Origin: a virus
Taxonomy: Duplodnaviria; Caudoviricetes
DNA length: 64,000 bases
Reading direction: 5' to 3' (one strand)
IMG/VR virus record: IMGVR_UViG_3300013105_000843
Location: 65,557 to 129,556 of that record
A program made the translations under genes and the position numbers. The notes below the pieces were generated by a model. The model saw only the letters and a list, made by a program, of their open reading frames with translations. It had not been told where the DNA came from and ran no database searches. Of the stretch, positions 5,690 to 63,205 are shown one piece after another. Each line of letters opens with the position of its first letter. Position 1 is the first letter of the stretch.

Positions 5690-5857
5690 ATTACGTATTT
5701 ACGAGTATATTACGCATCCGGCCGACCACCGGCAAGTCCTGTCCGCCAATCCTGCCGCGTCAACCAGCCCGATATCGCAAAACAGCCGAATTGCCCCGCG
5801 CATCGACCTATACGGTCTTGCAGCAATTTTGCTGTTTCTAACAAGAGGAAACAAAAC

Positions 5858-8089
5858 ATGAAGAACGCACTCTACAACCACACCCTCGGCAAGGACATGC
5901 TGTCCGAGTCCAAGTTCTACATGGGGTACTCCCGGTGGAACGGCGCCAAGGCGGGTTACGAGACCTGGGAAGAATCGGTCGAGCGCGTGATGCAGATGCA
6001 TCGCGAGAAGTATTCCGAACGGCTGTCCCCGGAGCTGGAAGCCTACCTGGCGAAGGCGGAGCTGGCTTACAAGAGCCAGTGGGTGCTGGGCGCACAGCGT
6101 GCCCTGCAGTTCGGCGGCGAGCAACTGCGCAAGCACGAGGCCCGCATGTACAACTGCTCGGTGTCGCATTGCGACCGGCCGGCCTTCTTCCCGGAAGCGA
6201 TGTATCTGCTCCTGTGCGGCTGTGGCGTGGGCTTCTCGGTGCAGAAGCATCATGTCGCGATGCTGCCGACGCTGAAGAAGCGTTCGGCCAAGCGCGTCAA
6301 GCTGTTCCAGGTGCCGGACAGCATCGAGGGTTGGGCGGACGCTTTCGGCGTGCTGCTCAGCTCGTACTTCGGTGAGGGGCCCTTCCCGCAGTACAAGGGC
6401 TGTCATGTCCACTTCGATTTCAGCCTCATCCGTCCGAAGGGCGCGATGATTTCGGGTGGTTTCAAGGCTCCGGGACCGGACGGTCTGCGCAACGCGCTCA
6501 ACAAGTGCGAAGCCCTGCTCGAGCGCACGCTCGGTGAGGCTAACGAGGTCGCGATGCCGCCCATCGTGGCGTACGACTTCGTGATGCACATGAGCGATGC
6601 CGTGCTGGCTGGCGGTGTGCGCCGTTCGGCGACCATCTGCCTGTTCGACAAGGACGACGAGGAGATGCTGAGCGCGAAGACGGGGGACTGGTACGTCAAG
6701 AACCCGCAGCGTGGCCGCAGCAACAACTCGGTGGTGCTGATGCGTGACGAGTTGACCCGCGAGGAATGGGCGCAAATCATGAGGTCGGTTCGCGACTTCG
6801 GTGAGCCCGGCTTCATCTTCACGGAGAACAAGGAGTTCGCGTACAACCCGTGCGTGGAAATCGGCATGTTGCCGAAGACGGAAGACGGCGAGTCCGGCTT
6901 CCAGTTCTGCAACCTGACCGAAATCAACGGCGGCAAGTGCACGGACGAAGAGCGCTTCTACAAGGCATGCGAGGCCGGCGCCATCCTGGGCACGCTCCAG
7001 GCAGGTTACACCGACTTCAAGTACCTGACGGAAGCCACGCGTCGCATCACGGAGCGCGAAGCCCTGATTGGTGTGTCCATCACCGGCTGGATGAACAATC
7101 CGGACGTGCTGTTCGATGAAGCCATCCTGAAGAAGGGGGCGGAAATCGTGAAGGCAACCAACAAGGCAGTGGCCAAGCTGCTGGACATCAACCCTGCCGC
7201 GCGCACCACCTGCGCGAAGCCTTCGGGCAACGCGTCGGTGCTGCTGGGCACCGCTTCGGGCATCCACGGGGAACACGCGCCGATGTACTTCCGCAACGTG
7301 CAGATGAACGAGGACGACGAAGTCGCCAAGCTCATCATGGCCATCAATCCCAAGATGGTCGAACGCTCGGTGTGGAACAGCAATGGCACGGACGTCGTGG
7401 TCAGCTTCCCGGTCGTCACGAAGGAAGGTTCCATTTTCAAGCGTGACCTGATGGGCGTGAAGCAGCTGGAGTTCGTCAAGAAGGCCCAGCAGCACTGGGT
7501 CGAGAATGGCACCGATGTCGAGCTGTGCGTGGACAAGCATCTTCGCCACAACATCTCGAACACCATCTCGGTCGACGACTGGGAGGCGGTGGAGCAGTAC
7601 ATTTTCGATAATCGCCAGTGGTTCGCAGGCATCTCGCTGCTCTCGGCGTCGGGGGACAAGGGCTATGCCCAGGCTCCCTTCACCGAAGTGCATACGCCGG
7701 ACGAAATCCTGCGTACGTACGGCGAGGCCAGCATGTTCGCCTCGGGTCTGATTGTCGAAGGGCTGCACGCCTTCGATAACAACCTGTGGATGGCCTGCGA
7801 TACGGCGATGGGCAACGGGCTGAAGCTCACGAACGAGGCAACCGACCTGCTCAAGCGCGACTGGGTGCGTCGCTTCAACAAGTTCGCGGACAACTTCTTC
7901 AACGGTGACCAGCAGAAGACGGCGTTCTGTCTCAAGGACTGCCAGAATCTGCACAAGTGGGTGGCCATCATGAAGAGCATCAAGGAAATCGATTTTGCCT
8001 CGGTGCTGTCCGAACAGACGTTCGTGGACGCGAATACGTTGGCCTCCCAGGCCTGCGCCGGCGGAACCTGCGAAATCAGCTTCGGCTGA
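5858..8089 (+). CDS. nrdJ: Class II (adenosylcobalamin-dependent, RTPR-like) ribonucleotide reductase
   Basis: YNCS, GGVRRSA, NPCVEI, CNLTEIN, KPSGNAS and C-terminal CAGGTC; no NrdB in the window; RBS AGAGG before ATG 5858. Confidence 0.85.
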   Translation: MKNALYNHTLGKDMLSESKFYMGYSRWNGAKAGYETWEESVERVMQMHREKYSERLSPELEAYLAKAELAYKSQWVLGAQRALQFGGEQLRKHEARMYNCSVSHCDRPAFFPEAMYLLLCGCGVGFSVQKHHVAMLPTLKKRSAKRVKLFQVPDSIEGWADAFGVLLSSYFGEGPFPQYKGCHVHFDFSLIRPKGAMISGGFKAPGPDGLRNALNKCEALLERTLGEANEVAMPPIVAYDFVMHMSDAVLAGGVRRSATICLFDKDDEEMLSAKTGDWYVKNPQRGRSNNSVVLMRDELTREEWAQIMRSVRDFGEPGFIFTENKEFAYNPCVEIGMLPKTEDGESGFQFCNLTEINGGKCTDEERFYKACEAGAILGTLQAGYTDFKYLTEATRRITEREALIGVSITGWMNNPDVLFDEAILKKGAEIVKATNKAVAKLLDINPAARTTCAKPSGNASVLLGTASGIHGEHAPMYFRNVQMNEDDEVAKLIMAINPKMVERSVWNSNGTDVVVSFPVVTKEGSIFKRDLMGVKQLEFVKKAQQHWVENGTDVELCVDKHLRHNISNTISVDDWEAVEQYIFDNRQWFAGISLLSASGDKGYAQAPFTEVHTPDEILRTYGEASMFASGLIVEGLHAFDNNLWMACDTAMGNGLKLTNEATDLLKRDWVRRFNKFADNFFNGDQQKTAFCLKDCQNLHKWVAIMKSIKEIDFASVLSEQTFVDANTLASQACAGGTCEISFG

Positions 8090-8115
8090 TAACGCAACCT
8101 GCCAAGCCGTGACTC

Positions 8116-8145
8116 AAAAGCCACCTGGTTCTCCAGGTGGCTTTT
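8116..8145. terminator. Bidirectional terminator
   Basis: AAAAGCCACCTGG-TTCT-CCAGGTGGCTTTT between convergent genes. Confidence 0.85.
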
Positions 8146-8222
8146 CTTATGCCGGCGCCACTCTCAAGCCACCAATGGGAAAGGCGCACCTTCGTGCGCC
8201 CTGAGCGAGGCAGTTCTTGATG

Positions 8223-9368
8223 TCAGATAGCGTCGGCCGCGCGCTGCCAGTCCGGGCCCAGCATCATCCCGTGGCCGCTATTCGGCAGCTCGAGCAGCTC
8301 TGCGCCGTAGGCCGCTGCCGTGCGCCGGACGAGGTCGAGCGGGATGACCTTGTCGCGCGCGCCGCCCAGCACGGTGACAGGCACCCGGATGTCTGCCGGC
8401 CGCACCGCGGGTGATACGGCCAACGCCTGCGCCAGCACCTCCTTGGACCTGTAGCTGAAGAGATTGTCCTGCGCCTGCTTCAGTTCCTCGCTGCTCAGCT
8501 TGTTATGTGGCACCGCGCCCATCAGCACCGCCTTGCGTGCGTCATTGCGGCTGAGCCAGTGCTGCACGACAAAGCCGCCCATCGAATGCCCGACGATGAT
8601 AGGCACCGCCTCGAGCGACCGGGTCACCTCCTCCACATCGTTGACGTAGGTGAGCACCGACTCGACGGCCGACAAGCGCCGGCTGCGCCCGTGGTTCGTG
8701 AGCGAGACCGCGTGCACGTCGTAGCCCTTCGCGGCCAGGTACGGCACGAACTTGATGCGCCATTGCCAGCAGCAGCCACCCGCGCCGTGCACCAGCACGA
8801 CCGGCGTGGCGCCGGCGTGCCCGGCCCGTTTTTCCAGCACCTCCAGCCCCGAATCGAGGTGATACACCCGGACCTGACTGGAGGCCTGCCGCTCAACCAC
8901 CTGGATGCTGGCCGTGCATTCGTCGTCATCGGCGGCGAGGGTGGCACCGGCGCGCGATACCAGCGACGCCATGCGGAAGTTTCGCCGCATGAACATCACG
9001 TAGACGGTCGAAATGCCGCGCTTGCGCGACTCCTCGAGGCTCGCAGCCAGCATGCGGCTCGACAGGCCGCGGCCGCGCACGCGCCGGTCGACGCTCACGC
9101 CCAGTTCCGCGACGGGATGGCCACGCTCGTCGAAGACCGCGAGGTGGCAGAGGCCGGCCAGGCCGAACGCGCCCCACACGCCCAGCACGACGTCACGGTT
9201 GAAGTCGATATGCGCCACATACTCGCGCAGCGCGATATCGCGAATCACGCGGGAAAACCGCAGGCAACGGTCCTCGTCGTTGAGCGCCAGCAGATGCTGG
9301 AGGATGGCTTGCGAATCCAGCTCGGTCAGCCGGACGGGACCACCTAAATCATGAATGAAATCTCCCAT
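8223..9368 (-). CDS. GNAT acetyltransferase / alpha-beta hydrolase fusion
   Basis: N-terminal AELGVSV..RGRGLSSRML (GNAT motif A); C-terminal VHG, GHSMGG, D (RDKVI), H (SGHG). Confidence 0.85.
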   Translation of the reverse strand: MGDFIHDLGGPVRLTELDSQAILQHLLALNDEDRCLRFSRVIRDIALREYVAHIDFNRDVVLGVWGAFGLAGLCHLAVFDERGHPVAELGVSVDRRVRGRGLSSRMLAASLEESRKRGISTVYVMFMRRNFRMASLVSRAGATLAADDDECTASIQVVERQASSQVRVYHLDSGLEVLEKRAGHAGATPVVLVHGAGGCCWQWRIKFVPYLAAKGYDVHAVSLTNHGRSRRLSAVESVLTYVNDVEEVTRSLEAVPIIVGHSMGGFVVQHWLSRNDARKAVLMGAVPHNKLSSEELKQAQDNLFSYRSKEVLAQALAVSPAVRPADIRVPVTVLGGARDKVIPLDLVRRTAAAYGAELLELPNSGHGMMLGPDWQRAADAI

Positions 9369-9456
9369 GGGACGATACCTATATGCAGTCAAACTAGCTC
9401 CCGTATAGGCTGTTTCTGGTGGATGACCTCCTGACTTTGCGGCTCGACGACGACCG

Positions 9457-9669
9457 TCACGCAAGCCGATAGGTGCGCAGCTCGCTCACGAGCCATTGGC
9501 CGGACAGTTCGTCGAGCCGGGCGCGTAGCTCGCCGGCCGTGCCGGTGAACTCGGCCAGCATGAGCCGCTCGCGCGTCTCGACGAGATGAATTCCCGCGAT
9601 TGCCCGTATCGGAGCTTGGTCTTCGATGGGGGCAGGCACCGAGTCCTTGCGCATAATCACGTACCGCAT
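9457..9669 (-). CDS. Small hypothetical protein
   Basis: 70-aa ORF with AAGGAG RBS. Confidence 0.6.
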   Translation of the reverse strand: MRYVIMRKDSVPAPIEDQAPIRAIAGIHLVETRERLMLAEFTGTAGELRARLDELSGQWLVSELRTYRLA

Positions 9670-9744
9670 GTCGGCTTCTCCTTGGTTGAACGCCTACCAA
9701 GAAATGGCAGCCAGCGCGGAAAACCGGCAACGCGAAGCACCGAA

Positions 9745-9774
9745 AAATGAAAAACCCCGTTTGCACGGGGTCTT
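9745..9774 (-). terminator. Rho-independent terminator
   Basis: ACCCCGT-GCAA-ACGGGGT followed by T runs on the minus strand. Confidence 0.7.
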
Positions 9775-9813
9775 GAGAGTCGAAGTTGCTTTGTCCGGTC
9801 CTGCGTCATTCAG

Positions 9814-10110
9814 CTATGCCCCGGGTATGCGCTGTCGTCCGCGCGGCGGCTGCCGCACGTGCCGCTGCGCAAACTTCTGATACCAGTTCAGGTTCTCGGT
9901 CAGCGCAACCGACTCCTTCACCTCCGCAAGGCGGGGATACACCAGCGGCGGAACCGGTACGTCTTCGCCGAGCGCTCGCAGTGCCTCAGGCACGTTGTGC
10001 GCCGTGACGACTTCATAGCCGTGGGCCCGCAGCGCCTGCACGATGGCAGCGGCCGCAGCGGCAGAGTCCACCACCAGGATGCGCTCCATCGTTTTTGTAT
10101 CTGCGTCCAT
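9814..10110 (-). CDS. Truncated response-regulator receiver-like protein
   Basis: RILVVD...ALRAHGYEVVTAHNVPEAL resembles the first part of a REC domain; GGAGG RBS. Confidence 0.6.
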   Translation of the reverse strand: MDADTKTMERILVVDSAAAAAAIVQALRAHGYEVVTAHNVPEALRALGEDVPVPPLVYPRLAEVKESVALTENLNWYQKFAQRHVRQPPRGRQRIPGA

Positions 10111-10180
10111 TTGTATTTCCTCCACTGAAGGTTTAGACGCAGTCGTATAGGCACGCACGCCGCGGCGTCGTGGGCATGCG

Positions 10181-11350
10181 CTAGTTGCCTTCCGTCTCGG
10201 CGGGGAGCCAGGCGAGATAGCGCTCGCGGTTGTCGGGCCGGAAGTAGCCGCGGCCCGCCACCTCGTCAAAGAGCTTGCGCATGTCGTCCAGCATCCTGCG
10301 CCGTGCCGGCGCGGGCAGCAGGCCAAAGCCGTGGTTCAGGCAGATGGCCATACTGCAAAGCAATGCGCGGTCGGGTTCATCCGGCAATGCTGCTGCGGGG
10401 TGCTGACGCAGGTACTCGAGCCGGCTCGCGTCAATCGCATCACCGCTATAGCCCGTGCGGCGCAACAGCGTCGCGGCACGCTCGAGCGCGTGGTCGATGC
10501 AGACAGCAATCGCCTCGCCGGGGCTCGGCGTCCACGCGGTGGCGGGCGCTGGCTCGCCCACCGGTGGGACCGGACGAATCTCGCATTCGCGCAACTCACA
10601 TGAATCTGGCGCGCGTTCGATGATGAACGGCGCGCCGCCGTCTTTCGGCGTGCACTCGTAGCGCTGTACAGCGCTGTCACTGGCGTGCGCAGCGATAAAG
10701 CGCTGCACGGCCGCATCGATGGCGGCATAGTCGGTCGACGCGAGCAACGACTCGTTTTCCCGAGCCCACTTCAGCAAGTCCTCCGCCGTAGTTCGGGTCA
10801 GCCCCGCGATGACCAGCTCGATTTCGGCGAATACCCGGTAGCGGCAGTCCTGCCGATGATGCTCGATGTGCGGTGTCTTGGTAAGGCACGTGCAGGCGGC
10901 CGCCTGGGCCATGCGCACCTCGCGGAGGTGGCGCCCCGCGAGCCGAAACAAACCTTCTGCACCCGGTATGGCAGGCGCGCCGAGCGTGGACTGCTCATGG
11001 CCGCGATGTCGGTCTGCAGCCGGGCGATGAGCCCAGCCGCGCCATGCGTGTTCGGTCGCATCGTTCCAGAACGTCGCCGGGCCCACTCCCGTCAACGTGG
11101 TGATGCCTCCTTTCTCCGCGCACGTCGTCAGGTCGTATCCCTGGCCACGCGCGAACTGCCTGAAGTCATCATAGACGACGCTGGGGGTACGTGCTTTCGC
11201 CACACGGCTGTGCGCCGCGCGTTCACGGTCCAGAGCAATCAGTTCGCGCACGCGCGCAGCAGAAAACATAGCGCGGCCGTCAGCAAGCTGGGGGTCAAGC
11301 GATGTCCAGTCGGTTGATGCCTGCGGGTATCCCGGCTCGTTGTTTGTCAT
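10181..11350 (-). CDS. Hypothetical mosaic protein with a CxC..H..C module
   Basis: 389-aa ORF with GGAG RBS. Confidence 0.6.
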   Translation of the reverse strand: MTNNEPGYPQASTDWTSLDPQLADGRAMFSAARVRELIALDRERAAHSRVAKARTPSVVYDDFRQFARGQGYDLTTCAEKGGITTLTGVGPATFWNDATEHAWRGWAHRPAADRHRGHEQSTLGAPAIPGAEGLFRLAGRHLREVRMAQAAACTCLTKTPHIEHHRQDCRYRVFAEIELVIAGLTRTTAEDLLKWARENESLLASTDYAAIDAAVQRFIAAHASDSAVQRYECTPKDGGAPFIIERAPDSCELRECEIRPVPPVGEPAPATAWTPSPGEAIAVCIDHALERAATLLRRTGYSGDAIDASRLEYLRQHPAAALPDEPDRALLCSMAICLNHGFGLLPAPARRRMLDDMRKLFDEVAGRGYFRPDNRERYLAWLPAETEGN

Positions 11351-11365
11351 CCGAATGCTCCAAGC

Positions 11366-11695
11366 TTATTTTGTGGGCGGAGTCTCGCCGGGCTCCGCCG
11401 AACGCAGCACATAGCACTCGCCCAGCTGGGATGTGATTTGTCCGGTGTCACTCAATTTCCAGCACGATGCCCCGGCGCTCTTAACTCCCCCGTTGACGAT
11501 GCGAATCGGTGGCTGACCTGCCGCGCTGCTAGCGGCTATGCCCGGCGCTGGCCGTTGCTCGCTATAGAGTGTCACCACCGTGACAGCGCTTCCGCTGGGC
11601 GCGATAGCCGTTGCCGGCTCAGCAGCGATGGCTGCGGTCATCATGCAAAGCAGGCAAACACCTGCAGGCAGAACGGAGCTGTTTCGAGTCATCAT
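11366..11695 (-). CDS. Hypothetical exported protein
   Basis: Signal-peptide-like N-terminus ending in AIA-A. Confidence 0.55.
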   Translation of the reverse strand: MMTRNSSVLPAGVCLLCMMTAAIAAEPATAIAPSGSAVTVVTLYSEQRPAPGIAASSAAGQPPIRIVNGGVKSAGASCWKLSDTGQITSQLGECYVLRSAEPGETPPTK

Positions 11696-11836
11696 CTGAG
11701 GATGTATCTTGGTTAGCTAAAGCGGATTAATCCACCTCGGCGGCGGCTTTCATACCGTTTGACCTGATTTTGTCGAGCCGATACTTCACTTTGTTGCCGA
11801 GTTAGCGCATGGCGTGTTTCTGCGGTGAAGTTAAAA

Positions 11837-11864
11837 ATTCTACGCGCTATGCGCAGCTTGTCAA
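11837..11864 (-). promoter_or_regulatory. Sigma70-like promoter
   Basis: TTGACA-16-TAGAAT on the minus strand. Confidence 0.6.
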
Positions 11865-11980
11865 GCAATGAACATGTGTATTTTGTTGTATAACTGGTAT
11901 GCTGCCGCATCGAGAGACATGACCGCCGGCCCATTGCGCACGGAAACCGAGTCGCTTTACCCATTTCCCACCCGGACTAA

Positions 11981-12008
11981 TTGACAATCAATCGATTAAG
12001 GCTATATT
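11981..12008 (+). promoter_or_regulatory. Sigma70-like promoter of the PspA/DUF2491-like operon
   Basis: TTGACA-16-TATATT. Confidence 0.65.
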
Positions 12009-12044
12009 ATTCTTGCACCTTCACCGCTCATCCCGGAGTACAAC

Positions 12045-12878
12045 ATGAAGTTTCCGCGCCTGTTGGCCGTGGCGACCGCGCTCGCCCTGGCCGTCTCGCC
12101 CCTGACGTGGGCCAAGGGTTCTGGCTTCAGCTCGAGCCGCTCGTCGTCGTCTTTCAGCCGCTCTTACAGTTCGTACAGCTCCAGTTCGTACAGCCCGAGC
12201 CGTTCCAGTTCGTCCTGGTCGTCCAGTCCGTCGTCGACCTCTTCCGCAAGCCGCAGCTCGGGATTCGGTTCGGGAGCCAGTTCATCCGGCAAGAGCGCCG
12301 CCGCAACCGGGCTCGGCAGCACGCTGTATGCCGCGCATGCGAGCAAGGCCGCCGCCGACACCTACACCCGACAGTCGAGTGCGGGCTCTGACACCGGGAG
12401 CGCACGCCCCTCTGGCAGCCAGATGGCAAGCAACCAGTCGGCATCCGGTTACGCCGCGGCTCCGAGCCGCTCAGCGAACTACCAGCCGACCGAAGTGCAT
12501 CACTACCACACGGTCGACACCTCGAGCAGCTCGAACAATTTCCTGCTGGGCTACATGCTCGGTCGCTCCGGCGAGCGCCACGACACGGTGGTCGTCCAAC
12601 AGGCGCCTGCTCCGCAGTACGCACCGGCGCAGTACACACCGCAACCCGCAGGCGTGGTGACGCCGGAAGGGGTTCAACCGGCCGCCGCGCACGCGCAGCC
12701 GGCAAGCGACCCCGGTGTCGCCGCTTCTGAAAAGGCCCGCCAGTCGGACTTCCACTTCATGGGGGTGGTGGTCTGGATGCTGGTCCTCGGTGGCGTCGCT
12801 TTCGTGAGCTACCAGGCGTTCAAGCGCTGGTCGGTCCGCAAGGCTCGCTATACCTCGACGAACCACTACAAACTGTAA
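12045..12878 (+). CDS. Ser/Gly-rich exported, membrane-anchored protein
   Basis: Signal peptide, low-complexity Ser tract, FLLGYMLGR motif (DUF1190-like), C-terminal TM helix. Confidence 0.75.
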   Translation: MKFPRLLAVATALALAVSPLTWAKGSGFSSSRSSSSFSRSYSSYSSSSYSPSRSSSSWSSSPSSTSSASRSSGFGSGASSSGKSAAATGLGSTLYAAHASKAAADTYTRQSSAGSDTGSARPSGSQMASNQSASGYAAAPSRSANYQPTEVHHYHTVDTSSSSNNFLLGYMLGRSGERHDTVVVQQAPAPQYAPAQYTPQPAGVVTPEGVQPAAAHAQPASDPGVAASEKARQSDFHFMGVVVWMLVLGGVAFVSYQAFKRWSVRKARYTSTNHYKL

Positions 12879-12886
12879 GGAGCCGC

Positions 12887-13684
12887 ATGGGAATCTTTAA
12901 CCTCGCGGGCCGCGTGCTCGACAAGAAACTCGACGATGCAGCTCGCGCGCATGCGCCGAAGCTCGACCGTGTCGACACGGGGCTGCCGTTCAACGCGCAA
13001 ATCGGCGCCCTGCTCGAAGTGCCGCGCACCGATTTCGCGGTGCTCTCGGGTTCGCTGCTGACCGTGCCGAAAAGCGCTCAGCTGCCCCTCGTGGCCGTGA
13101 GTCGCGTGCATCTGAACGTCGACGATGACCTCGCGCTGTTCCGGCTCTACACCGACACGGGCGCCGACCGCTCGGGAGCCGGCCAGAGCTTCCTGCAGGT
13201 GCTCTGCCGCGCCAGCAATGTCGACGACATTCGTGACCTCACGTACTACCAGTTCCTGTGTCGCCAGTATCCCGTCAGCGATGAGGAGCAGGCGCCGTTT
13301 CGCGGTGAAGGTTTCGGCCTTGGCGAAGTGAACTACGAAATGGCCGAGGACCAGCTCGCCACCATCCAGCAGGCCGCCGGCAACATCAGCGCGCTCCTGG
13401 CGGGTGCCGAATCGCTGAGTTTCACGCGCGACGCGCCGGGCGGCGACTACGTGACGCCCTATACCGGTCGCGAGAACCGCCTCGACGATGCCGTCGGTGA
13501 GAAGGGGCTGACCAAGCAGCTGTCCTTCATGCCCTACGTGCGCGACCTCGATGGCGGCCGCCAGGAGCGCCTGCTGATTTCGTTCGACTACATCCGGAGC
13601 ATGGACGGCAAGTCCGCGCCGGCCGTGTACGTCGATTTCCTGGCCGGGCTCGCGCTCGACCGCAACAAGGTAAAGGTCCTCTGA
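12887..13684 (+). CDS. DUF2491 (YjfK)-like protein
   Basis: Overall resemblance recalled, not searched (GLPF..IG, RLY, FLQV, ERLLI); AGGAG RBS; adjacent to a PspA-like gene. Confidence 0.55.
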   Translation: MGIFNLAGRVLDKKLDDAARAHAPKLDRVDTGLPFNAQIGALLEVPRTDFAVLSGSLLTVPKSAQLPLVAVSRVHLNVDDDLALFRLYTDTGADRSGAGQSFLQVLCRASNVDDIRDLTYYQFLCRQYPVSDEEQAPFRGEGFGLGEVNYEMAEDQLATIQQAAGNISALLAGAESLSFTRDAPGGDYVTPYTGRENRLDDAVGEKGLTKQLSFMPYVRDLDGGRQERLLISFDYIRSMDGKSAPAVYVDFLAGLALDRNKVKVL

Positions 13685-13728
13685 CACAGCGGACCACTCA
13701 TCCCCCAACTTTTCGCAAGGAGACTTTC

Positions 13729-14481
13729 ATGTCCGGCTGGAAACTGACTGCTGCACTCATCACGAAACACGTCGGCGTGCTCGGCGACAAGCTCGCCACC
13801 GCCATCGCCGGCTTCGACCCGGAGACCGCGACGCAGGTCGACCGGGACAACCTGCAGGCGAAACTGCGCGAGGTGGCGCTGAAGCTCGCGGATGCGAAGC
13901 ACAAAAACGACGCCGCGCAGAAGACCGCGACCGACCTGGCCGCCAGCATCGCGAACGACGCGAAAACGGCCGAAATCCTCATCGCCAAGTTCGACAAGAA
14001 GGAAATCGACGAGGCGATGCTCAACGAGTTCGCGAACAACCTCGAGGCCGACAAGGCGCGCCTGCCGGGTATCCAGCAGGATGCAGCCTCCGCGCAGCAG
14101 TTGGTCGACACGCTGCAGGAAATCCTCAACACGGTCGAGCAGAACCTCAACGAGTTCGACGCGAAGGCCAAGGCAGCGATGCGCAACCTCGAGCAGGCGC
14201 GCGCCGACGAGCAACGCGCGGAGATGCAACAGCAGCAGCAGGCCGAACTGAGCGAGCTGCGCTCGAGCGTCGGCGGCACATCGACGGGGTTGGCCGCGTT
14301 GAACCGTGCGGCCGACAAGGCGCGCGTGCAGGCGGACGCCGCGCAGACCGTCGCCGACATCGGCCAGAAGCCGATTGACCGCGCGAACGTCATCGAGGAA
14401 GCCCGCAGCATCGCCGCGGGCGACGCGCCGGCGGCCACCGAGTCGACCGCGGACCGCCTGCGCCGCATCGCCGGCAAGTAA
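13729..14481 (+). CDS. PspA/IM30-like coiled-coil protein
   Basis: 250 aa, N-terminal amphipathic helix, long heptad coiled coils, C-terminal DRLRRI; AGGAG RBS. Confidence 0.6.
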   Translation: MSGWKLTAALITKHVGVLGDKLATAIAGFDPETATQVDRDNLQAKLREVALKLADAKHKNDAAQKTATDLAASIANDAKTAEILIAKFDKKEIDEAMLNEFANNLEADKARLPGIQQDAASAQQLVDTLQEILNTVEQNLNEFDAKAKAAMRNLEQARADEQRAEMQQQQQAELSELRSSVGGTSTGLAALNRAADKARVQADAAQTVADIGQKPIDRANVIEEARSIAAGDAPAATESTADRLRRIAGK

Positions 14482-14545
14482 GCCGGGCGTTCCTGGCATG
14501 GCCGGCTTACTTGCCGGTCGAGCCAGCGTTCAGCGCTTTGCACAC

Positions 14546-14577
14546 AACCCACCGGGACCCCGGTGGGTTTTTCTTTT
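14546..14577 (+). terminator. Rho-independent terminator
   Basis: AACCCACCGG...CCGGTGGGTT followed by a T run. Confidence 0.8.
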
Positions 14578-14593
14578 ACTCCAAAAAATTAAC

Positions 14594-14622
14594 TTGACCA
14601 TATAGCTATTTCGCAGCATACT
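14594..14622 (+). promoter_or_regulatory. Sigma70-like promoter
   Basis: TTGACC-17-CATACT. Confidence 0.55.
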
Positions 14623-14678
14623 GTTTTCGAAATGGAGTATCCCCGTGGCCGTGTGCCGGCCGTCCCAGGAGAGAATCG

Positions 14679-15452
14679 ATGACCCAGCTGCAAATGAGTG
14701 AATTCGTGAACCAGAAAAAGGCCGCCCTCATCAAGTGGGCGATTATCGGCGCATGCTGCGTGGTCGCTGCCCCGGCCGCGCTGATGGTGCTCAAGGGCGT
14801 GGTCGCGCTGGCCGTGGCCGGTGTGGTGGGCGCGGGCAGCATTTTCTTCGCTCCGGTCGTGGCCCAGCGAATGGCGATTCAGCGGGTCAAGATGGAAGTC
14901 AGGAGCGCCGAAGAGAACCCCATCGAGACGCTGCAGAACGAATACATCCAGATGCAGAAGGACGCAGAGTCCTTCGAGAAGGAAGTGACGGCGTTCGCCG
15001 CGGAGGTCGACAGCTTCGCGCAGCAGACGCAGGAATACAAGAAGGAGTACCCGGACGACGCCAAGTTGTTCGAGGACCAGTTGACGGCAATGCGCACCCT
15101 CCAGACGTACAAAGAAGGGAAGTTCAAGCAGGCGCAGGCCGACCTGCACACGTTCGACGGCGTCGTGAAGCGCGCCAAGGCGATGTGGAAAATGGCGCTG
15201 TCGGCCAAGCGCATGAATGAAATCGCCGGCCGGCAGAGCGTCGATGTGTTCTCGCAAATCCGCAAGGACACCTCGCTCGACACCGTGCGCCAGGCGACGT
15301 ACCAGTCGTTCGCGGAAGTGCGAACCGCCCTGCTGAAGAAGGTGGACATGCCGGGGGCCGGCGGGCAAGCCAAGCTTGCCGCCCCGCAGCCGCCGCAAAC
15401 GCTCGGGTTGGTGGGTGATATCGCCCAGAAACAACCGAACGTCAACCAGTAA
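14679..15452 (+). CDS. Membrane-anchored coiled-coil protein (possibly PspA/Snf7-like)
   Basis: Two N-terminal hydrophobic helices, then NPIETL and a long coiled coil; AGGAG RBS. Confidence 0.7.
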   Translation: MTQLQMSEFVNQKKAALIKWAIIGACCVVAAPAALMVLKGVVALAVAGVVGAGSIFFAPVVAQRMAIQRVKMEVRSAEENPIETLQNEYIQMQKDAESFEKEVTAFAAEVDSFAQQTQEYKKEYPDDAKLFEDQLTAMRTLQTYKEGKFKQAQADLHTFDGVVKRAKAMWKMALSAKRMNEIAGRQSVDVFSQIRKDTSLDTVRQATYQSFAEVRTALLKKVDMPGAGGQAKLAAPQPPQTLGLVGDIAQKQPNVNQ

Positions 15453-15477
15453 GTTCACACACTGATAAGGCAAAGCC

Positions 15478-16596
15478 ATGTTGAAAAAAGCTCTCGGCGC
15501 CGTCGTGGTGCTTTTCGTGATGGCCCTTGCGTGGTTCTTCACGCAGGGCCCCGGCGCACTGATGCTGCAAGGCCGCATGTCGCCTGTGCAACCGGTTGCG
15601 ACTGCGGCCCCCGCGCTCGCCCCCGCTCCCGTGACGCCGCCGGGATTCCAGCCGGCTGCTGATGCGCTTCAGTCCATCAAGACGAACGGCATCGTGCGCG
15701 TGTCGAACCAGAATCCGAGCGAGCCGTTCTACGGCGTGGCCAGTGGCGTACCGCACGGCTTCAACGTCGATTTCGCCAAGCTGCTGTTCGCAGACCCGTC
15801 GTTCGCCTCGCCGTCCCGTCCGGGCATCACGGTGGACTTCAACCACAGTGTCGACACCTACGCGGGCGTGCCGCAGCAGCTGTTGGCCAAGGACAGCGCG
15901 GGCAATGCCACGGTCGACGTCGCGATGGACGGCCTGACGTTCGCCGACAACAGCCCGGCGGGCGTCGTCTACACGCTGCCGTACATCGACGATTTCGGCT
16001 ACGCCCTGATTGTCCAGCGTGGCTCGGCCATCCACTCCGTCAGCGACCTCGCTGGCAAGAAGGTCGGCATCCTGAAGGGAGACCCGGACGTCAAGGCGTA
16101 CGTGGCCCGTCAGCTGCCCGGCGTGACATTCGTCGAGGTGGACGACGCTGACCCGGCCTTCATTCCGAAGGCGGTTGACAGCCACACGGTGGACGCGTTC
16201 ATCTACGACTACCCGTTCGCGGTGGAATCCATCAAGGGCTCAGACCTGCAGTTTGCGGCGACCAAGCTCGACGGCTCGAACATCGCATACAAGATTGGCG
16301 TGCGCACGCAGGACCAGTCGCTGCTGATTTACCTGAACGCTGCTATCGCGAAGCTCAAGCAGTCGCCGCAGTACCTCGAGCTGCTGCGCAAATATTTCGT
16401 CAGCAACCAGACGGTGACGACGGCCGCGACCCCCGGCGAACGGGTGTACGTGGTCAAGCAGGGGGACACGCTGAACCTGATTGCGGCGAACGTGCTGGGC
16501 AGTGGCCAGCGCTTCCGCGAGATTCAGCGGCGAAACAATCTCGCCAACCCGAACCTCATTCTGGTCGGCCAGCATCTGGTCATTCCGGTGCGCTGA
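15478..16596 (+). CDS. Family-3 solute-binding domain fused to a C-terminal LysM domain
   Basis: GFNVDFAK, DLAGKKVG and VDAFIYD (SBP_bac_3); YVVKQGDTL..IA...NPNLILVGQHLVIP (LysM). Confidence 0.9.
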   Translation: MLKKALGAVVVLFVMALAWFFTQGPGALMLQGRMSPVQPVATAAPALAPAPVTPPGFQPAADALQSIKTNGIVRVSNQNPSEPFYGVASGVPHGFNVDFAKLLFADPSFASPSRPGITVDFNHSVDTYAGVPQQLLAKDSAGNATVDVAMDGLTFADNSPAGVVYTLPYIDDFGYALIVQRGSAIHSVSDLAGKKVGILKGDPDVKAYVARQLPGVTFVEVDDADPAFIPKAVDSHTVDAFIYDYPFAVESIKGSDLQFAATKLDGSNIAYKIGVRTQDQSLLIYLNAAIAKLKQSPQYLELLRKYFVSNQTVTTAATPGERVYVVKQGDTLNLIAANVLGSGQRFREIQRRNNLANPNLILVGQHLVIPVR

Positions 16597-16658
16597 ACCA
16601 GGCGGCGCGCTACGCACCGACGGCAACCCCTGGTTGCCGTTTACACGATGGAACTGAA

Positions 16659-17153
16659 ATGAAACGACTCGCATTGGTCATGAGCCTTTTCGCAGGCACG
16701 CTCCTCTGTGGCGCGCTTAGTGGCTGTGAGCGTGTCCCGCAGGCTATCGCAACCGCTGGGGCGAAGATTCTCGAGCGCGTCGTCCCATCCGAGTTTGAGC
16801 GGCTGAAGATTGAAGAGGGTGGGTTCGGCTTCGGCAGACACGAGCGTTGCCTCGCGGAGGTATCGCCCGCACATGCGCAGGATTGGCTCGCTGGCGGTGA
16901 CAGCACAATCTGGGCTGTCGGGCCGCGCGATGACTTCCAGATGATGGCTCTCGATGCCGTGAAGAAGAATGGGCGCTGGGTGCTTCTCAGCACGGACGCG
17001 GACCCGGAAAGCATGGACGCAAACGAATTTCAAACCCGCGTGACCGAATGCATCGACAGCCTGCGTGAAGCTCGCGACGCGTCACGCGAGCGTGCGAGGC
17101 AGCAAACTGAAGAAGCAGCGCGCAACCGCCAGACGTGGGCGGCTGCGCGCTGA
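16659..17153 (+). CDS. Putative lipoprotein
   Basis: Lipobox LSGC. Confidence 0.65.
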   Translation: MKRLALVMSLFAGTLLCGALSGCERVPQAIATAGAKILERVVPSEFERLKIEEGGFGFGRHERCLAEVSPAHAQDWLAGGDSTIWAVGPRDDFQMMALDAVKKNGRWVLLSTDADPESMDANEFQTRVTECIDSLREARDASRERARQQTEEAARNRQTWAAAR

Positions 17154-17322
17154 CCATACATTAACCCCTCGAGGAACCCAGCATGTTGAAGAACGGAGTT
17201 ACCCATATGGCGTTGCGCGCCATGAACAGGACGCGCAAGCCGCATGTCGCACAACCGCAACCCGCGCCGGCTCAGCCGGAGGCGCAGGCTGTGCGCCCGT
17301 CGAAGCGCCGTACCGGGCTGTC

Positions 17323-17583
17323 CTATCGGACCTTCGCCGCGCCGTCGCGCGCAGACGAATAAAGCGCTGGCATATCGAGCGTCCCCGCGACGATGGCGTG
17401 CAGCACGTCATCAGAGAGCGCTTTCACGACACCCAGCGAGCGGGCTGCCAGCTCGGTACGCGCCGCCTGGCGCCAGGCGGTTTCGAGCAGCAGGTCGGGC
17501 TCCAGGTCGGGATGGGTCGAAACGTAGCCGGCAAGTGCGCTGCGCGCTTCCTGGCGAATGGTCGCTGGGGTTCTCGTGGTCAT
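17323..17583 (-). CDS. Hypothetical protein
   Basis: Short ORF in a minus-strand run. Confidence 0.5.
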   Translation of the reverse strand: MTTRTPATIRQEARSALAGYVSTHPDLEPDLLLETAWRQAARTELAARSLGVVKALSDDVLHAIVAGTLDMPALYSSARDGAAKVR

Positions 17584-17632
17584 GACTGGAATCAAGGTCG
17601 GGGCACCAGCCGGAAGCCTACACCAATCTGAA

Positions 17633-17839: not shown

Positions 17840-17962
17840 TCATGGACTCCCGTTGATTACTTTCCTTTGACCCGAGGAAAGATATCAGCATGGAGCCCTT
17901 GTGCTCAAGGGAAAAACCCCTGCAGCTGCTGCAGGGGCTTGAGAGCGTCAGGTCTTCCGGCT

Positions 17963-18679: not shown

Positions 18680-18794
18680 TTGGTCCTCTCCAGATGATGC
18701 GGCCGTTCCCATGGGGATTCGGTCCGCGCAGGTTGAACAGATATGTCCACCTGCGTATAGCTTCTGGAAAACCAGCTTCGCGGTGACGCGCCGG

Positions 18795-52187: not shown

Positions 52188-52248
52188 GCCATTCCTTGTG
52201 GTGGTTGTAGGGTCAATTAAGTATATCCGTTTACTCGCTTTTCGCAAG

Positions 52249-55286: not shown

Positions 55287-56651
55287 TTACGAGGCGAGCG
55301 ATGCTTCGTGAAACGAAACCCACGGCTTGTCCGCGCCCTTCCCCTTGGCGCCCAGGTGCACCGGCATCGAGAACGTGATGCCGTGGTCCGGATGCGAAAT
55401 CCACAGCGCCTGCTGCGGCTGCTCGAAGCCGAAGTTGTTCGCGTGGGCGTACTCGTTGTAGCCAATGAGCGAGCCGTTCATGATGATTCGGCGCATCTGC
55501 AGCAGCTGGTGGAAGTGCCCGATAACCAGGGTGTCGTACTCCTGATTGATTTGCGCATTGCGCGAGCGCTTCTTGTGGTCGCCACGGGTAATCGGGCCGA
55601 GCGGGCCAATCATGCCGTCGCCGCCGCGGAACTGGTTGCCGTGCGTGAACAGGTAGCGGTAGCCGTACACCGACACCAGCGCGTCCGGGCCGTCCGGGAT
55701 GAAGAAGACAACGTCCGGGTCGTCCTGGAAGTGGCGGTCCAGGCACTGGTAAATCAGCCAGTCGAACGAATTGAAGTTCGATTCCTTCGCGCGCATCTTC
55801 TTGTGCATGCGGCCATGGTTGCCGGCGACACACGGCAGGAACACTCGGCCAAACACGGCTTTCAGGCGCTTGATGGCGACGATGAGATGGTCGACGAGGT
55901 CGAGCACCACCGTCATGATGGGCTCTTCGTTGGTCTCGCTCAGTTCCTCGTGGATATTGCCCGACACCATGTCGCCGCCGAGCGCGAACACGATGCCCGG
56001 ATAGTCCGGCTTGACCATGTGGCGGGTCAGGAGGTTGATGGTGCGCTCGATGAGCTTGTTCAGGCGCTCGCGCGCGATGGTGAGGTTGTACTCGTTCACC
56101 CCGCCGATTTCGGAGGGCTTCACGACTTCCCCCCAGTGCCAGTCCGAACCGAAGAGAATCGGCACGCCGGTCGTGGTAGCACCCGCTGCGGCCGAACGTT
56201 CAATCCAGGCGGGGGTGGTCGGCTTCGCGTGCGCGATTTCGAAAATCTGCCGGCGAATCTGCTCTTCATTGAGAGCGGACTCGGCGAGCGTTTCGGCCTG
56301 CTTGCGCAGGCGACGATTCTCGTCCTGCAACAGCTTCAATGCCATCGCCATGCGGTCGCCGTTGGTTACCGCATCAGCGAGGCTCGCGCGCGTGGCCGTG
56401 GCGGTGGCGCCGGCCGGCGACGTGCGGGAGACCCCCGACGTACGCGACAGCGACGCGCGGGCCGCTACAGCCGCCCCGCCACCGTGAGGACGCAGCAGTT
56501 TCTCGACGGCATCGGTCCCCAGGATATTGCGGGCCTGCCCGAGCCGATAGGACACCGCACTTTGCGCTACTCCCAGCTCACGGGCGGCCGCACGCTGGTT
56601 GCCAGCCGCGGCAAGACGCCGGACGAACTGCTTCGCCTCTGTCTTATTCAT
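55287..56651 (-). CDS. HTH / coiled-coil / calcineurin-like metallophosphoesterase
   Basis: NQRAAARELGVAQSAVSYRL (HTH); SDWH, GGD, GNHG, THG, GHFH. Confidence 0.85.
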   Translation of the reverse strand: MNKTEAKQFVRRLAAAGNQRAAARELGVAQSAVSYRLGQARNILGTDAVEKLLRPHGGGAAVAARASLSRTSGVSRTSPAGATATATRASLADAVTNGDRMAMALKLLQDENRRLRKQAETLAESALNEEQIRRQIFEIAHAKPTTPAWIERSAAAGATTTGVPILFGSDWHWGEVVKPSEIGGVNEYNLTIARERLNKLIERTINLLTRHMVKPDYPGIVFALGGDMVSGNIHEELSETNEEPIMTVVLDLVDHLIVAIKRLKAVFGRVFLPCVAGNHGRMHKKMRAKESNFNSFDWLIYQCLDRHFQDDPDVVFFIPDGPDALVSVYGYRYLFTHGNQFRGGDGMIGPLGPITRGDHKKRSRNAQINQEYDTLVIGHFHQLLQMRRIIMNGSLIGYNEYAHANNFGFEQPQQALWISHPDHGITFSMPVHLGAKGKGADKPWVSFHEASLAS

Positions 56652-56709: not shown

Positions 56710-56737
56710 TGTATAACGTTAAATGCGCTATTGTCAA
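56710..56737 (-). promoter_or_regulatory. Sigma70-like promoter
   Basis: TTGACA-16-TATACA on the minus strand. Confidence 0.55.
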
Positions 56738-58211: not shown

Positions 58212-58213
58212 GG

Positions 58214-60214
58214 TCAACGCACCCACAGGTTGAAGTTGCAGCCCGTCGCGCTGGCATAGCAGAACCCGTTGGGCACATCCGCACCGAGCACCCACGCATA
58301 GCCGTAGTTGGCCATGTTCGTGTTGAAATACAGCTGCCCGTCGACAATGTCGCCATCGGCCAAGCCGTTCCCCGCGTAAGGCAGATAGTCAGCGGAAGGG
58401 GATTGCGCGCCCGTCCAGCCGGTCGTGGCGTAGGAGGTCGCCGTGTCGCCGGAGACCATCGACGCGTGCGCATAGGGCGTGGCTTTCCAGTAGCGCGTTT
58501 GCTGGTAGGTTCCGTCCGAGGTCGCCCGGTAGATGCCCGCTCCGCCCGCGCGCAACAGGTTGATGGTGGTGTCATCGAGCTTGAACGCAGAGGCGCCATA
58601 CGGGGCGTTGCGGCTCGTCGCGAGCCCCGGATTGATGGCGGAGGTCACGTTCCAGGCCGATGGCGACATCCCCGAGCCACCCGCGCCACGCATGACGAGT
58701 TCCCAGCCGCCCCCGTTGCTCGACATGTCGCACCAGACCTGCAGCGGCGAAGCCGCACCCGGCGGGTTGACAAGATACACCCCGTCGGCCATCGCGCCCT
58801 GGTTGCGGTAGCTCGTGCATGCGGAAAACGGAGCCGCCGCCATCGGCTGCCAGGCGCCGCTGCGCTGAACGAAGCCGGCCCCTTCGGTGAGCTGCTCTCC
58901 CAGGCTGCGCCCCGTTTGCCAGAGCCGGAATGCTTCGCTGTCCGACAGCGCTCGATTCCAGACAGCCATGTCGTCGAGGAACAGATTGGCCATGTACCAG
59001 CTGGTATTGCCCGTTCCGCCGAGGTTGGCTGTGCTGCTCCAGGCCCGGTTTGCGGGTAGCGGCTGGCTTCCCGCGAGCGTCAGCGTTTGCCGCACACCGT
59101 CGATGTAGATGCGCTCGTCCGGCGCAAAGTTGTCGCCCGCGTCCTTGCGCGTGTCCATCACGAACACGTACAGGTGCTTGCCTGGCAACGGTGTGACACC
59201 TCGCACCTCGCCCTGATAGGTGTTAAACCCAATCAGGTTGTAGTTCGCGTTGTACCAGATGTCGTAGGTGGCGAACGAAAACGGCATGACGAGGCCCGTC
59301 AGCGACGCACTGTCCAGCCACATTGCGATGGTGGCCTGTGAGGTGCCAAGCGCCGCCAGTTCAGGCAGCGGCAAAGAGGCAATGCCGGTTCCAACACGCG
59401 CCTGACCGAATACCCCCGGCGCGTAGCTCGTCGTCGAGAATTGGATGTCGTGCCCGGACACTGCGTCATGCGCGACGTTCCCGTTCATCTCATCCATGGA
59501 CCAATACGACACCAGGCCCTTCATGAGCGGCGCCCCGGAGATGCCCAGCGACTGCAGCGGCTGCCACTGGCCGGGCGTGCCGGTTGGATTCAGGTACACC
59601 GACGCGTGCCCCGTGCCGTCATCGAGCACCGGACGAATTTCGCCGGGCGTGATGTACTGCAGCTGGTTCAGCACCGCCAAGCTCGCCACCGGCTTGCCGT
59701 GGTCAATCGCCCCCGTACGCCCTTTCAGCAGCGAGGCGCTCGTGATGACGCGCACGATATCGTCACCGAGCGTCTGCCCGAGCAGCGCCGTCGCGCACGG
59801 CGTCTGGAAAACACCATCCTTGCCCGCCGAGACCAGCGCGGCCGCCGCATCGGAGACTGCTGCGCTCGAGGCGACGCAATAGCCGAGTGCATTGCCCCAC
59901 CCGTCCACCCGCGCTACGTTGGGCAGTACCGCCGGCAATTGCCCGCCGCCCGTCGGCGCGAACGCGGCGCTCTGGTATGCCGGCAGCACCGCCACGTTGC
60001 TGGTGGTGAAGGATGGCGCGGCCGTGAGTTGCGTGACAGCGGCCGACATTGCCGTTTCGGACATCGCGCGGGCGCGCGAGGAGGCGACGCTCAGCATCAT
60101 CGGCCGGATGACGGACGTCGCCATCGCCGTGGCCACCGCAATCGCGGCTACGGCTGCCAGGAGCAGCGGGACCGCCGCATAGCCGCGCTGTCGGTTCTTG
60201 AGGTTCATGTTCAT
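58214..60214 (-). CDS. Pilin-like adhesin 2 (pilin + LamG + fibrinogen-like)
   Basis: RQRG|YAAVP; GLVSYWSMDE...IYIDG...DDMAVWNRALS; ADGVYLVNP..WCDM...GGGWELV. Confidence 0.85.
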   Translation of the reverse strand: MNMNLKNRQRGYAAVPLLLAAVAAIAVATAMATSVIRPMMLSVASSRARAMSETAMSAAVTQLTAAPSFTTSNVAVLPAYQSAAFAPTGGGQLPAVLPNVARVDGWGNALGYCVASSAAVSDAAAALVSAGKDGVFQTPCATALLGQTLGDDIVRVITSASLLKGRTGAIDHGKPVASLAVLNQLQYITPGEIRPVLDDGTGHASVYLNPTGTPGQWQPLQSLGISGAPLMKGLVSYWSMDEMNGNVAHDAVSGHDIQFSTTSYAPGVFGQARVGTGIASLPLPELAALGTSQATIAMWLDSASLTGLVMPFSFATYDIWYNANYNLIGFNTYQGEVRGVTPLPGKHLYVFVMDTRKDAGDNFAPDERIYIDGVRQTLTLAGSQPLPANRAWSSTANLGGTGNTSWYMANLFLDDMAVWNRALSDSEAFRLWQTGRSLGEQLTEGAGFVQRSGAWQPMAAAPFSACTSYRNQGAMADGVYLVNPPGAASPLQVWCDMSSNGGGWELVMRGAGGSGMSPSAWNVTSAINPGLATSRNAPYGASAFKLDDTTINLLRAGGAGIYRATSDGTYQQTRYWKATPYAHASMVSGDTATSYATTGWTGAQSPSADYLPYAGNGLADGDIVDGQLYFNTNMANYGYAWVLGADVPNGFCYASATGCNFNLWVR

Positions 60215-62562: not shown

Positions 62563-62567
62563 GGCGG

Positions 62568-63107
62568 TCAGTTGCTCACGAGAAAGGTCAGCTGGTTGCT
62601 GGCCAGCGCGGCATCCGCGCCAAGCCGCTGTGCCGCGAAAGTCAGCGTGCGCGAATCGCCCGTGATGGTCAGCCGCGCGCTGGTGCCGTCGTTGGTGAAC
62701 GCCCAGCCGCTCGACATGAAGGCCGGTGCAACCGGCAGCGTCACGCCATCGGTGCCGACCCACAGGTTCTGACCGGTGCCCGGGCAGACGAGTGCGCTCA
62801 CGGCAGTCGCGGTCACCGCGGCCGGCAGCGCGGGCCGGTACGAGGTGCCGTTGACGCCATCCGGATAGTCCGAACCGCACAGCAGGATGCGCGCGCGGAT
62901 GAAGTTCGCCTGCGTTGCGACCTGCGCGGCAGCATTGGTGTAGGCCTGGTTGCGCAGTCCCGACGTGTCCGACTGCGCGACGAAAGCCGTGACCACGACC
63001 GCCAGGATGACGGCGACCATCAGCATCGGCAGGACGGCGAAGCCCCGCTGGCGCGTCGAACAGTTGCGGCGGCGCGCGCCGGCCTGAAGGGGTTGAATTC
63101 GGGACAT
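62568..63107 (-). CDS. Minor type IV pilin-like protein (Pro at +5)
   Basis: RQRG|FAVLP plus hydrophobic helix; Cys pair; GGAG RBS. Confidence 0.8.
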   Translation of the reverse strand: MSRIQPLQAGARRRNCSTRQRGFAVLPMLMVAVILAVVVTAFVAQSDTSGLRNQAYTNAAAQVATQANFIRARILLCGSDYPDGVNGTSYRPALPAAVTATAVSALVCPGTGQNLWVGTDGVTLPVAPAFMSSGWAFTNDGTSARLTITGDSRTLTFAAQRLGADAALASNQLTFLVSN

Positions 63108-63205
63108 CGAAAGCTCCGGTTGGCCTTACGCCCGTGAGCAATACGGGCGGAACGGCAATCGGACGGTATAGCGTTCACGCAGGCGGATGGCCGCCGCGCC
63201 GGCGC

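Follow-up and report, generated by a model that had tools for sequence, protein, structure and literature searches.

CTATAC as a candidate element-specific promoter core in a lineage of conjugative megaplasmids

A single hexamer, CTATAC, recurs just upstream of genes in a 64,000-nucleotide (nt) stretch of the IMG/VR virus record IMGVR_UViG_3300013105_000843 (positions 65,557 to 129,556; the whole stretch is hereafter the window), which is the second half of a 129,556-bp contig, 63.3% G+C. Judged from its sequence context, the hexamer reads as a promoter element, is specific to its replicon and is conserved in relatives. We lean towards the view that CTATAC forms the core of an element-specific, strict promoter class without a −35 element, which would be the main promoter class of a conjugative megaplasmid lineage and would be served by a proposed reader carried on the element itself. 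An earlier, sequence-only reading of the window had listed 19 copies of the hexamer by coordinate and strand, and every one is exact.

CTATAC marks the starts of genes

The 19 copies in the window compare with 4.15 expected (standard deviation 2.14), a count reached in none of 100 dinucleotide shuffles. Sixteen of them sit 32–81 nt 5′ of a start codon on the same strand, counted from the hexamer's C to that codon, and the positional enrichment first noticed by eye is present. The three exceptions are also as claimed at the time: one copy lies inside a gene (13459), one is intergenic and antisense (19892) and one stands 237 nt from its gene (41700). Although only 14.7% of the window is non-coding, 17 of the 19 sites fall there (binomial P = 8.6e-13), and across the whole 129.5-kb contig, 19.4% of which is non-coding, the same holds for 36 of 39 copies (P = 1e-22), giving densities of 1.44 per kb in non-coding and 0.029 per kb in coding DNA. 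Gene positions come from a simple codon-usage gene caller, which places 168 genes on the contig; among these we count 29 oriented sites (20–100 nt upstream of a gene; 17%), and the genes concerned have mixed functions.

These counts bear on the possibility that CTATAC is a compositional artefact or a dispersed repeat, either an A+T-rich intergenic word or a small mobile cassette. A+T-rich words are generally more frequent in the intergenic DNA of G+C-rich replicons, but CTATAC has 29 oriented upstream sites on the contig, compared with 1–3 for five control hexamers of the same composition, the shuffles never match the observed count, and upstream windows of the contig carry the hexamer 31 times in the sense and twice in the antisense orientation. 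The copies do not form a repeat family either, because their flanks are unconserved beyond one base on each side. We regard an origin of this kind as scarcely credible.

Related replicons share the signal

By megablast, the contig shows nrdJ-level similarity to Variovorax megaplasmids only, with no phage match. We fetched three replicons for comparison: the complete 816-kb plasmid pWDL1-1 of Variovorax sp. WDL1 (W01), which has 31 of the 168 contig proteins in common; a 487-kb contig of Achromobacter anxifer LMG 26857 (G002:C5, hereafter C5); and pBVIE01, an F-type megaplasmid of Burkholderia vietnamiensis G4. C5 makes up 6.8% of its genome, has a G+C content of 60.6% compared with 67% for a chromosomal contig of the same strain, and has 52 proteins in common with our contig and 137 reciprocal best hits with pWDL1-1.

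C5 carries 232 copies of CTATAC, of which 206 are non-coding and 171 are oriented among 582 genes (29%), and pWDL1-1 has 136 copies, 96 of them in non-coding DNA, and 70 oriented sites for 893 genes. Upstream windows again favour the sense strand, by 170 to 33 on C5 and 73 to 22 on pWDL1-1. An unbiased ranking of strand-biased upstream hexamers places CTATAC first in both the contig and C5 and puts CTACAC and CTATAC within the top three in pWDL1-1; the same ranking of chromosome samples yields nothing similar. The three elements have median hexamer-to-start distances of 42, 42 and 37 nt, and where orthologs keep the hexamer on both the contig and C5 they keep its distance as well (−50/−51 for nrdJ, −39/−39 and −37/−38 for others). 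The earlier term regulon proves too narrow: a signal that precedes 17% of contig genes, of mixed function, and 29% in the closest relative points to a general promoter type of the element.

The recognised sequence differs between relatives. On C5 the hexamer is strict, with single-base variants at positions 2–6 giving 1–12 oriented sites against 171. On pWDL1-1 the middle base is free (CTANAC), and oriented sites number 43 for CTAAAC, 77 for CTACAC, 43 for CTAGAC and 70 for CTATAC. The last three forms have flanks, downstream AGGAC box and spacing in common (consensus T.gCTAYACg.gg.AgGaccac, median 36–38 nt to the start); around CTAAAC the flanks are weaker, and the start codon lies a median of 57 nt away. 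At many C5 and pWDL1-1 sites a cAGGAC(A/C)AC box lies 5–6 nt 3′ of the hexamer, and on the contig an AGGAC-type box follows only 3 of 16 G-ending sites.

nrdJ itself is a poor marker for relatives, because an nrdJ search of IMG/VR returned 79 loci that are almost all low-G+C phages without the motif. An IMG/VR scan with CTATACNNNNNCAGGACAAC gave 43 loci, mostly chance matches in low-G+C DNA. In the Variovorax WDL1 plasmid record (L005, 19776–22196) the nrdJ homolog is annotated as 'recombinase', with a start upstream of a CTATAC at 19852; both the name and the start are probably wrong.

A −10-like core without a −35 element

The conserved unit is S-CTATAC-B, and in a position matrix of the 39 contig copies all information falls within the hexamer and the single base to either side. 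G or C precedes the hexamer in 34 of the 39; it is followed by G 19 times, by C 12 times, by T 7 times and by A once (window: G 10, C 6, T 3), in agreement with the preference for G or C reported before. No −35 element is conserved in the position matrices of the contig or C5, and this flat upstream profile supports the original description of a −10-like, mostly −35-less promoter signal. Within TATAC, T at −12 and A at −11 are invariant by motif construction. The matrix shows no preference for TG two to three bases 5′ of the hexamer, the place of an extended −10 (TG at −15/−14); flanking conservation on pWDL1-1 instead takes the form of T at −3 and G or C at −1 relative to the hexamer.

Three window sites had been credited with a TTGACA-like −35. 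That holds for 28273 (TTGCCA at the canonical 17 nt) and for 38681, where TTGACA-16-CATACT overlaps the hexamer, and fails for 30749, whose TTGACA lies a non-canonical 22 nt from TATAC. Since the TTGACA of 38681 fits the overlapping CATACT, a −35 of this type spaced for TATAC as the −10 occurs at 1 of the 16 gene-proximal window sites. A minor, sigma-70-like class on the contig reads TTGCC or TTGACA, about 17 nt, then (N)TATACT, and the proper spacing of TTGCCA or TTGACA at this minority of sites argues that TATAC occupies the −10 position. On C5 nothing is conserved upstream of the 142 sites that end in a base other than T, and the 29 T-ending sites have a −35-like pattern with the consensus CTATACTaa, a subclass that reads CTATACTAA. 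The 19 window sites are as follows.

5808–5813, plus strand: promoter-like core 50 nt before the nrdJ ATG (5858–8089); next base G; no −35; the nrdJ ortholog on C5 has CTATAC 51 nt upstream
9403–9408, minus strand: promoter-like core 40 nt before a GNAT/alpha-beta-hydrolase gene (8223–9368, minus)
10145–10150, minus strand: promoter-like core 40 nt before a 98-residue gene (9814–10110, minus)
12848–12853, plus strand: promoter-like core 39 nt before a DUF2491 gene (12887–13684), within the last 30 nt of an open reading frame call (12045–12878)
13459–13464, plus strand: exception, inside coding region 12887–13684; probably a chance copy
18755–18760, minus strand: promoter-like core 81 nt before 17963–18679 (minus); divergent with 18822
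18822–18827, plus strand: promoter-like core 47 nt before 18869–19774; divergent with 18755; GT-rich repeat just 5′
19892–19897, minus strand: exception, intergenic, with no same-strand gene within 1.2 kb; antisense into 18869–19774
22057–22062, minus strand: promoter-like core 53 nt before 21623–22009 (minus)
26574–26579, minus strand: promoter-like core 32 nt before 26209–26547 (minus)
28273–28278, minus strand: sigma-70-like variant (TTGCCA, 17 nt, TATACT) 34 nt before a ParM/actin-like partition gene (27117–28244, minus)
30749–30754, minus strand: promoter-like core 36 nt before a RuvB-like gene (29546–30718, minus); TTGACA 22 nt upstream, non-canonical spacing
38681–38686, minus strand: hexamer overlapping a TTGACA-16-CATACT sigma-70-like site, 63 nt before an HU-like gene (38327–38623, minus)
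41700–41705, minus strand: exception, 237 nt before an RNase II/R-like gene (39453–41468, minus); long leader or no promoter
42702–42707, minus strand: promoter-like core 44 nt before 42280–42663 (minus)
42802–42807, plus strand: promoter-like core 39 nt before 42841–43227; divergent with 42702; the C5 ortholog also has its hexamer at −39
46995–47000, minus strand: promoter-like core 37 nt before a DHH phosphoesterase gene (46076–46963, minus); preceded by a terminator-like hairpin (9 pairs, T-run) that ends 14 nt before it
47964–47969, minus strand: promoter-like core 38 nt before 47425–47931 (minus); a terminator-like hairpin ends 24 nt upstream; downstream box caGGACAAC
63166–63171, minus strand: promoter-like core 64 nt before 62568–63107 (minus), the first gene of a pilin-like cluster; preceded by a terminator-like hairpin (11 pairs) that ends 44 nt before the hexamer

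The surroundings of these sites suit places where transcription units begin better than a signal internal to longer transcripts, because terminator-like hairpins end 14, 24 and 44 nt 5′ of 46995, 47964 and 63166 and because sites stand in divergent gaps, two of them in the window (18755/18822 and 42702/42802). There are also back-to-back divergent pairs only 8–14 nt apart. The position matrix of the 39 contig copies gives no positional signal for a fixed hairpin 5′ of the hexamer.

An alternative of a different kind is that the signal acts in RNA, CUAUAC being a processing, stability or translation element in the leaders of transcripts begun elsewhere. Strict orientation and a fixed distance to the start codon would also suit a leader element, and the AGGAC box looks like a ribosome-binding sequence. 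Transcripts begun elsewhere are nevertheless difficult to reconcile with the lack of a conserved promoter 5′ of the hexamer, with terminator-like hairpins ending so close to three window sites and with divergent pairs too close, at 8–14 nt, to accommodate separate promoters; those −35 elements that occur are, moreover, spaced for TATAC as a −10. We consider an RNA-level role improbable.

Two structures accompany individual window sites. Between the divergent hexamers 18755 and 18822 lies an imperfect GT-rich repeat, gtgtgtgtgtggtgtgtgtgtg (about 18787–18812), and a change in its length would shift the spacing of the pair. Within the predicted 44-nt leader after hexamer 42702 there is a terminator-like hairpin with a T-run (42675–42693, minus), which could be an attenuator.

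The signal is specific to its replicons

Replicon-specific use, as the sequence-only reading had proposed, is borne out: the signal is absent from the host chromosome samples and from the other megaplasmids examined. In 400 kb of Achromobacter chromosome there are 2 oriented sites per 369 genes (Fisher P = 1e-38 relative to the element), and 270 kb of Variovorax chromosomal contigs have 0 per 245 genes (Fisher P = 3e-8 relative to the element), so that identical use in host promoters is not seen. Neither the Variovorax nor the Achromobacter genome has a genome-wide excess of the motif over its reversed control. The extended pattern CTATAC-N4-6-AGGA has 33 matches in the Achromobacter genome, 25 of them on C5, compared with 6 for the reversed control, and outside C5 it stays at control level. 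A small chromosomal regulon using CTATAC may exist in the hosts.

On pBVIE01, whose ParE is 69% identical to that of the contig, there are only 4 oriented sites per 442 genes. CTATAC is rarer than its reversed control on nine other megaplasmids, among them pMPPla107, pBASL58, an IncP-2 type plasmid and plasmids of Cupriavidus, Caballeronia and B. gladioli. Among 401 Burkholderiales genomes (a tally that takes in G297, G029 and G208, unpublished and used nowhere else), S-CTATAC-S-N3-5-AGGAC is in excess in the Achromobacter seed only (12 versus 0 in the control), all others having at most 3.

The carrier resembles a conjugative megaplasmid

In IMG/VR the contig is classed as a fragment of a provirus, 63% complete by CheckV. 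It encodes an F-type TraD coupling protein and TraT as transfer genes, a prepilin peptidase with pilin-like genes and, for partition, a protein of the ParM type. Thirty-three tRNA genes, which together serve all 20 amino acids, form an array outside the window on the minus strand (contig 7485–18183, L001), and hexamers with a −35 at contig 10947 and 18708 head parts of it. Spare housekeeping genes are numerous: nrdJ, a ParE/ParC-like topoisomerase, an NAD-dependent ligase, SmpB and release-factor pieces, together with RuvB, RdgC, HU, RNase II and RNase H. A PHROGs scan of 123 contig gene calls found no capsid, terminase or tail families. This predicted gene content marks the contig as part of an F-type conjugative megaplasmid-like element that carries tRNA genes, at odds with its filing as a provirus.

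Linuron-degrading Variovorax carry tRNA-carrying megaplasmids, pWDL1-1 and relatives (Ozturk et al. 2020, PMC7313664). These are the nearest named replicons to the contig, with a tRNA array, F-type transfer genes, the 31 proteins in common and the same promoter signal, although pWDL1-1 differs in its relaxed form CTANAC. The words 'promoter', 'motif' and 'sigma' are absent from the passages of PMC7313664 found by term search, supplements aside, and full-text literature searching turned up no description of a CTATAC motif among the results listed.

Candidate readers of the signal

In the model that we favour, the recognised unit would be CTATAC at −13 to −8, preceded by G or C and followed by any base but A, with no −35 element. 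Transcription would begin at the box located 5–6 nt downstream in the relatives, and the predicted product would have a standard leader of about 25–35 nt ending in an AAGGA-type ribosome site. A large part of the element's transcription units would begin with the signal, which would often stand right after a terminator or in a divergent gap. We infer that it would be read by the host RNA polymerase core joined to an element-borne specificity factor that is unrecognisable by homology, in the manner of T4 late transcription.

T4 late promoters carry TATAAATA at −10 and are read by gp55 with gp33 and the sliding clamp. The CTATAC signal is likewise short, strict and −10-only, lacks a −35 and serves many genes of a mobile element, a likeness that would imply an element-borne specificity factor; it differs in sequence, no gp55-like family was found, and its carrier is conjugative plasmid-like, with no phage structural genes. 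T7-type promoters offer a second comparison, as in both cases conservation reaches over the start site and the core is similar to the T7 sequence CTATAG, but nothing is conserved 5′ of −14 and no T7-like polymerase was matched in a search that is itself unvalidated. Element-specific promoter classes with dedicated readers are textbook knowledge for phages; to our knowledge, such classes have not been described for conjugative plasmids.

The enterobacterial sigma-S (RpoS) promoters have the −10 consensus TCTATACTTAA, and the sites might simply be ordinary host promoters at which RpoS or sigma-70 uses CTATAC as a −10-only element, with no element factor. The core is the sigma-S −10 consensus CTATACT without its last letter, with C at −13, C at −8 of the TATAC core and a −35 that is weak or absent; a subclass, comprising window site 28273 and the 29 T-ending C5 sites, combines a properly spaced −35 with T at −7; and the searches turned up neither a sigma nor a polymerase gene on the elements. 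By contrast, T at −7 is the most conserved −10 position for sigma-70 and sigma-S alike, and it follows the hexamer at only 5 of 29 oriented sites on the contig, 29 of 171 on C5 and 4 of 70 on pWDL1-1, the commonest base being G. The hexamer is also near-invariant, whereas sigma-70 and sigma-S −10 elements are degenerate, and unlike sigma-S promoters it has a conserved box at the predicted start. Its use is limited to three related megaplasmid-like elements, the sampled host chromosomes being without such sites above background, and the use of CTANAC by the Variovorax element and CTATAC by the other two is not predicted by a conserved host sigma. RpoS, put forward as a possible reader in the sequence-only reading, is unlikely to fill that role because T at −7 is scarce, the hexamer is near-invariant and pWDL1-1 tolerates a different middle base. 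We judge host reading of the whole class unlikely, though a serious contender, and an element-borne reader the more economical inference.

A replicon-encoded sigma, the other reader suggested at the outset, was not found: Sigma70_r2 and gp55-like searches were negative on the contig, pWDL1-1 and C5, and the diverged-sigma reading is unproven. Sigma70_r2 had no match at E ≤ 1 on the contig and a single sub-threshold match on the complete pWDL1-1 (E = 0.09, 12.6 bits against a cut-off of 24), which has no homolog on the contig or C5; the Achromobacter genome has 17 matches, none on C5. This negative counts only in part, because T4 gp55 itself barely scores against Sigma70_r2 (E = 0.087). The gp55 families phrog_234 and phrog_12791 had no match at E ≤ 1 in the contig, pWDL1-1 or the Achromobacter genome, although a more diverged factor would escape them. 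T7-like polymerase (PF00940) was found in none of the same three, and the control genomes are also without the family, so that the search is unvalidated. RNA_pol and Rpb1_2 family searches found no extra beta-prime on the elements, and a DxDGD motif scan of large open reading frames found none.

Broader screens gave no reader candidate, either with Pfam, PHROGs and NCBIfam on contig gene calls of at least 40 residues or with Pfam and PHROGs on 130 of the 137 proteins common to C5 and pWDL1-1 (95 Pfam, 47 PHROGs; the genes of the other seven span locus borders and were left out). No common gene lies behind a strong sigma-70-type promoter in both C5 and pWDL1-1, and a paralog screen found nothing suggestive of a reader. 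Three unknown proteins are common to all three elements: one TIM-barrel-like enzyme and two that we call A2 and A3. A2 (250 residues) was rejected because it is widespread on megaplasmids without the motif. A3 (191 residues; contig 58328–58903, L004:1331–1903, minus strand, outside the window) occurs in full length only on Variovorax megaplasmids in PLSDB and, among the 401 genomes, only on C5; a sigma-70-like promoter precedes its gene in two of the three elements. Its predicted structure has an alpha/beta N-terminal domain (predicted local distance difference test, pLDDT, about 97) and a disordered arginine-rich tail, and in this model the N-terminal domain matches no sigma or clear DNA-binding fold (Foldseek E 0.086 or worse; best Z 3.9). 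PDB profile and Atlas searches with A3 were blank. Its homologs fall into 104 protein clusters at E ≤ 0.001, several of them on 500–670 kb contigs; the long contigs with this family are labelled Burkholderia ubonensis, Paraburkholderia bannensis, P. sediminicola and a compost metagenome. A3 remains a co-occurring protein only, confounded by shared ancestry.

Several points weigh against the reading that we favour. No Sigma70_r2, gp55-like, T7-like polymerase or extra beta-prime match exceeds family cut-offs on the contig, pWDL1-1 or C5. Conservation between orthologs of the contig and C5 is partial, with the hexamer present in both members of 5 of 34 pairs, in one only in 10 and in neither in 19 (Fisher P = 0.10). 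The promoter starts are predicted, all gene starts come from the simple gene caller, so that distances to start codons carry its uncertainty, and the contig is incomplete, a fragment at 63% by CheckV. Host sigma-S or sigma-70 may also read at least part of the sites, since the core resembles the sigma-S consensus and C5 has the T-ending subclass CTATACTAA.

A more specific proposal, that the reader is plasmid-encoded, lacks detectable similarity to sigma-70, gp55 or phage polymerases and has drifted in specificity (CTATAC versus CTANAC), is one that we advance tentatively and with some doubt. If true, the reader would be a promoter-recognition protein of a new kind, one that shields the expression of plasmid genes from the host. 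Reading by a plasmid-borne factor would explain the separate expression of duplicated housekeeping genes (tRNAs, topoisomerases, ligase, nrdJ) and would offer a compact promoter with its own factor as an orthogonal pair. Both Variovorax sp. WDL1 and A. anxifer LMG 26857 are carriers available in culture, and predicted sites of fixed architecture run into the hundreds.

Other features of the contig

Sigma-70-like promoters of the element favour TATACT over TATAAT, with non-coding counts of 20 versus 7 on the contig and 84 versus 9 on the Achromobacter relative; examples of TATACT lie at 28272–28300 and 52220–52247 of the window. The sampled host chromosomes show the opposite preference, TATAAT over TATACT.

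The exact 11-mer CGCATTTAACG occurs three times on the contig (none in 20 shuffles), at 56717–56727 of the window on the minus strand and at contig 46047 (plus) and 61991 (minus). All three copies occupy the spacer that separates the −35 from an (A/T)TATAC −10 in a sigma-70-like promoter, and the window copy precedes a 454-residue helix-turn-helix/exonuclease-like gene (55287–56651). From its placement the 11-mer looks like a repressor operator.

Elsewhere in the window, 48833–50242 (minus) encodes a 469-residue protein with RRXRR and HNH regions (Pfam E = 1.4e-66; phrog_2214 E = 1.8e-112), which by these family matches is a predicted IscB-like or HNH homing-type nuclease gene.

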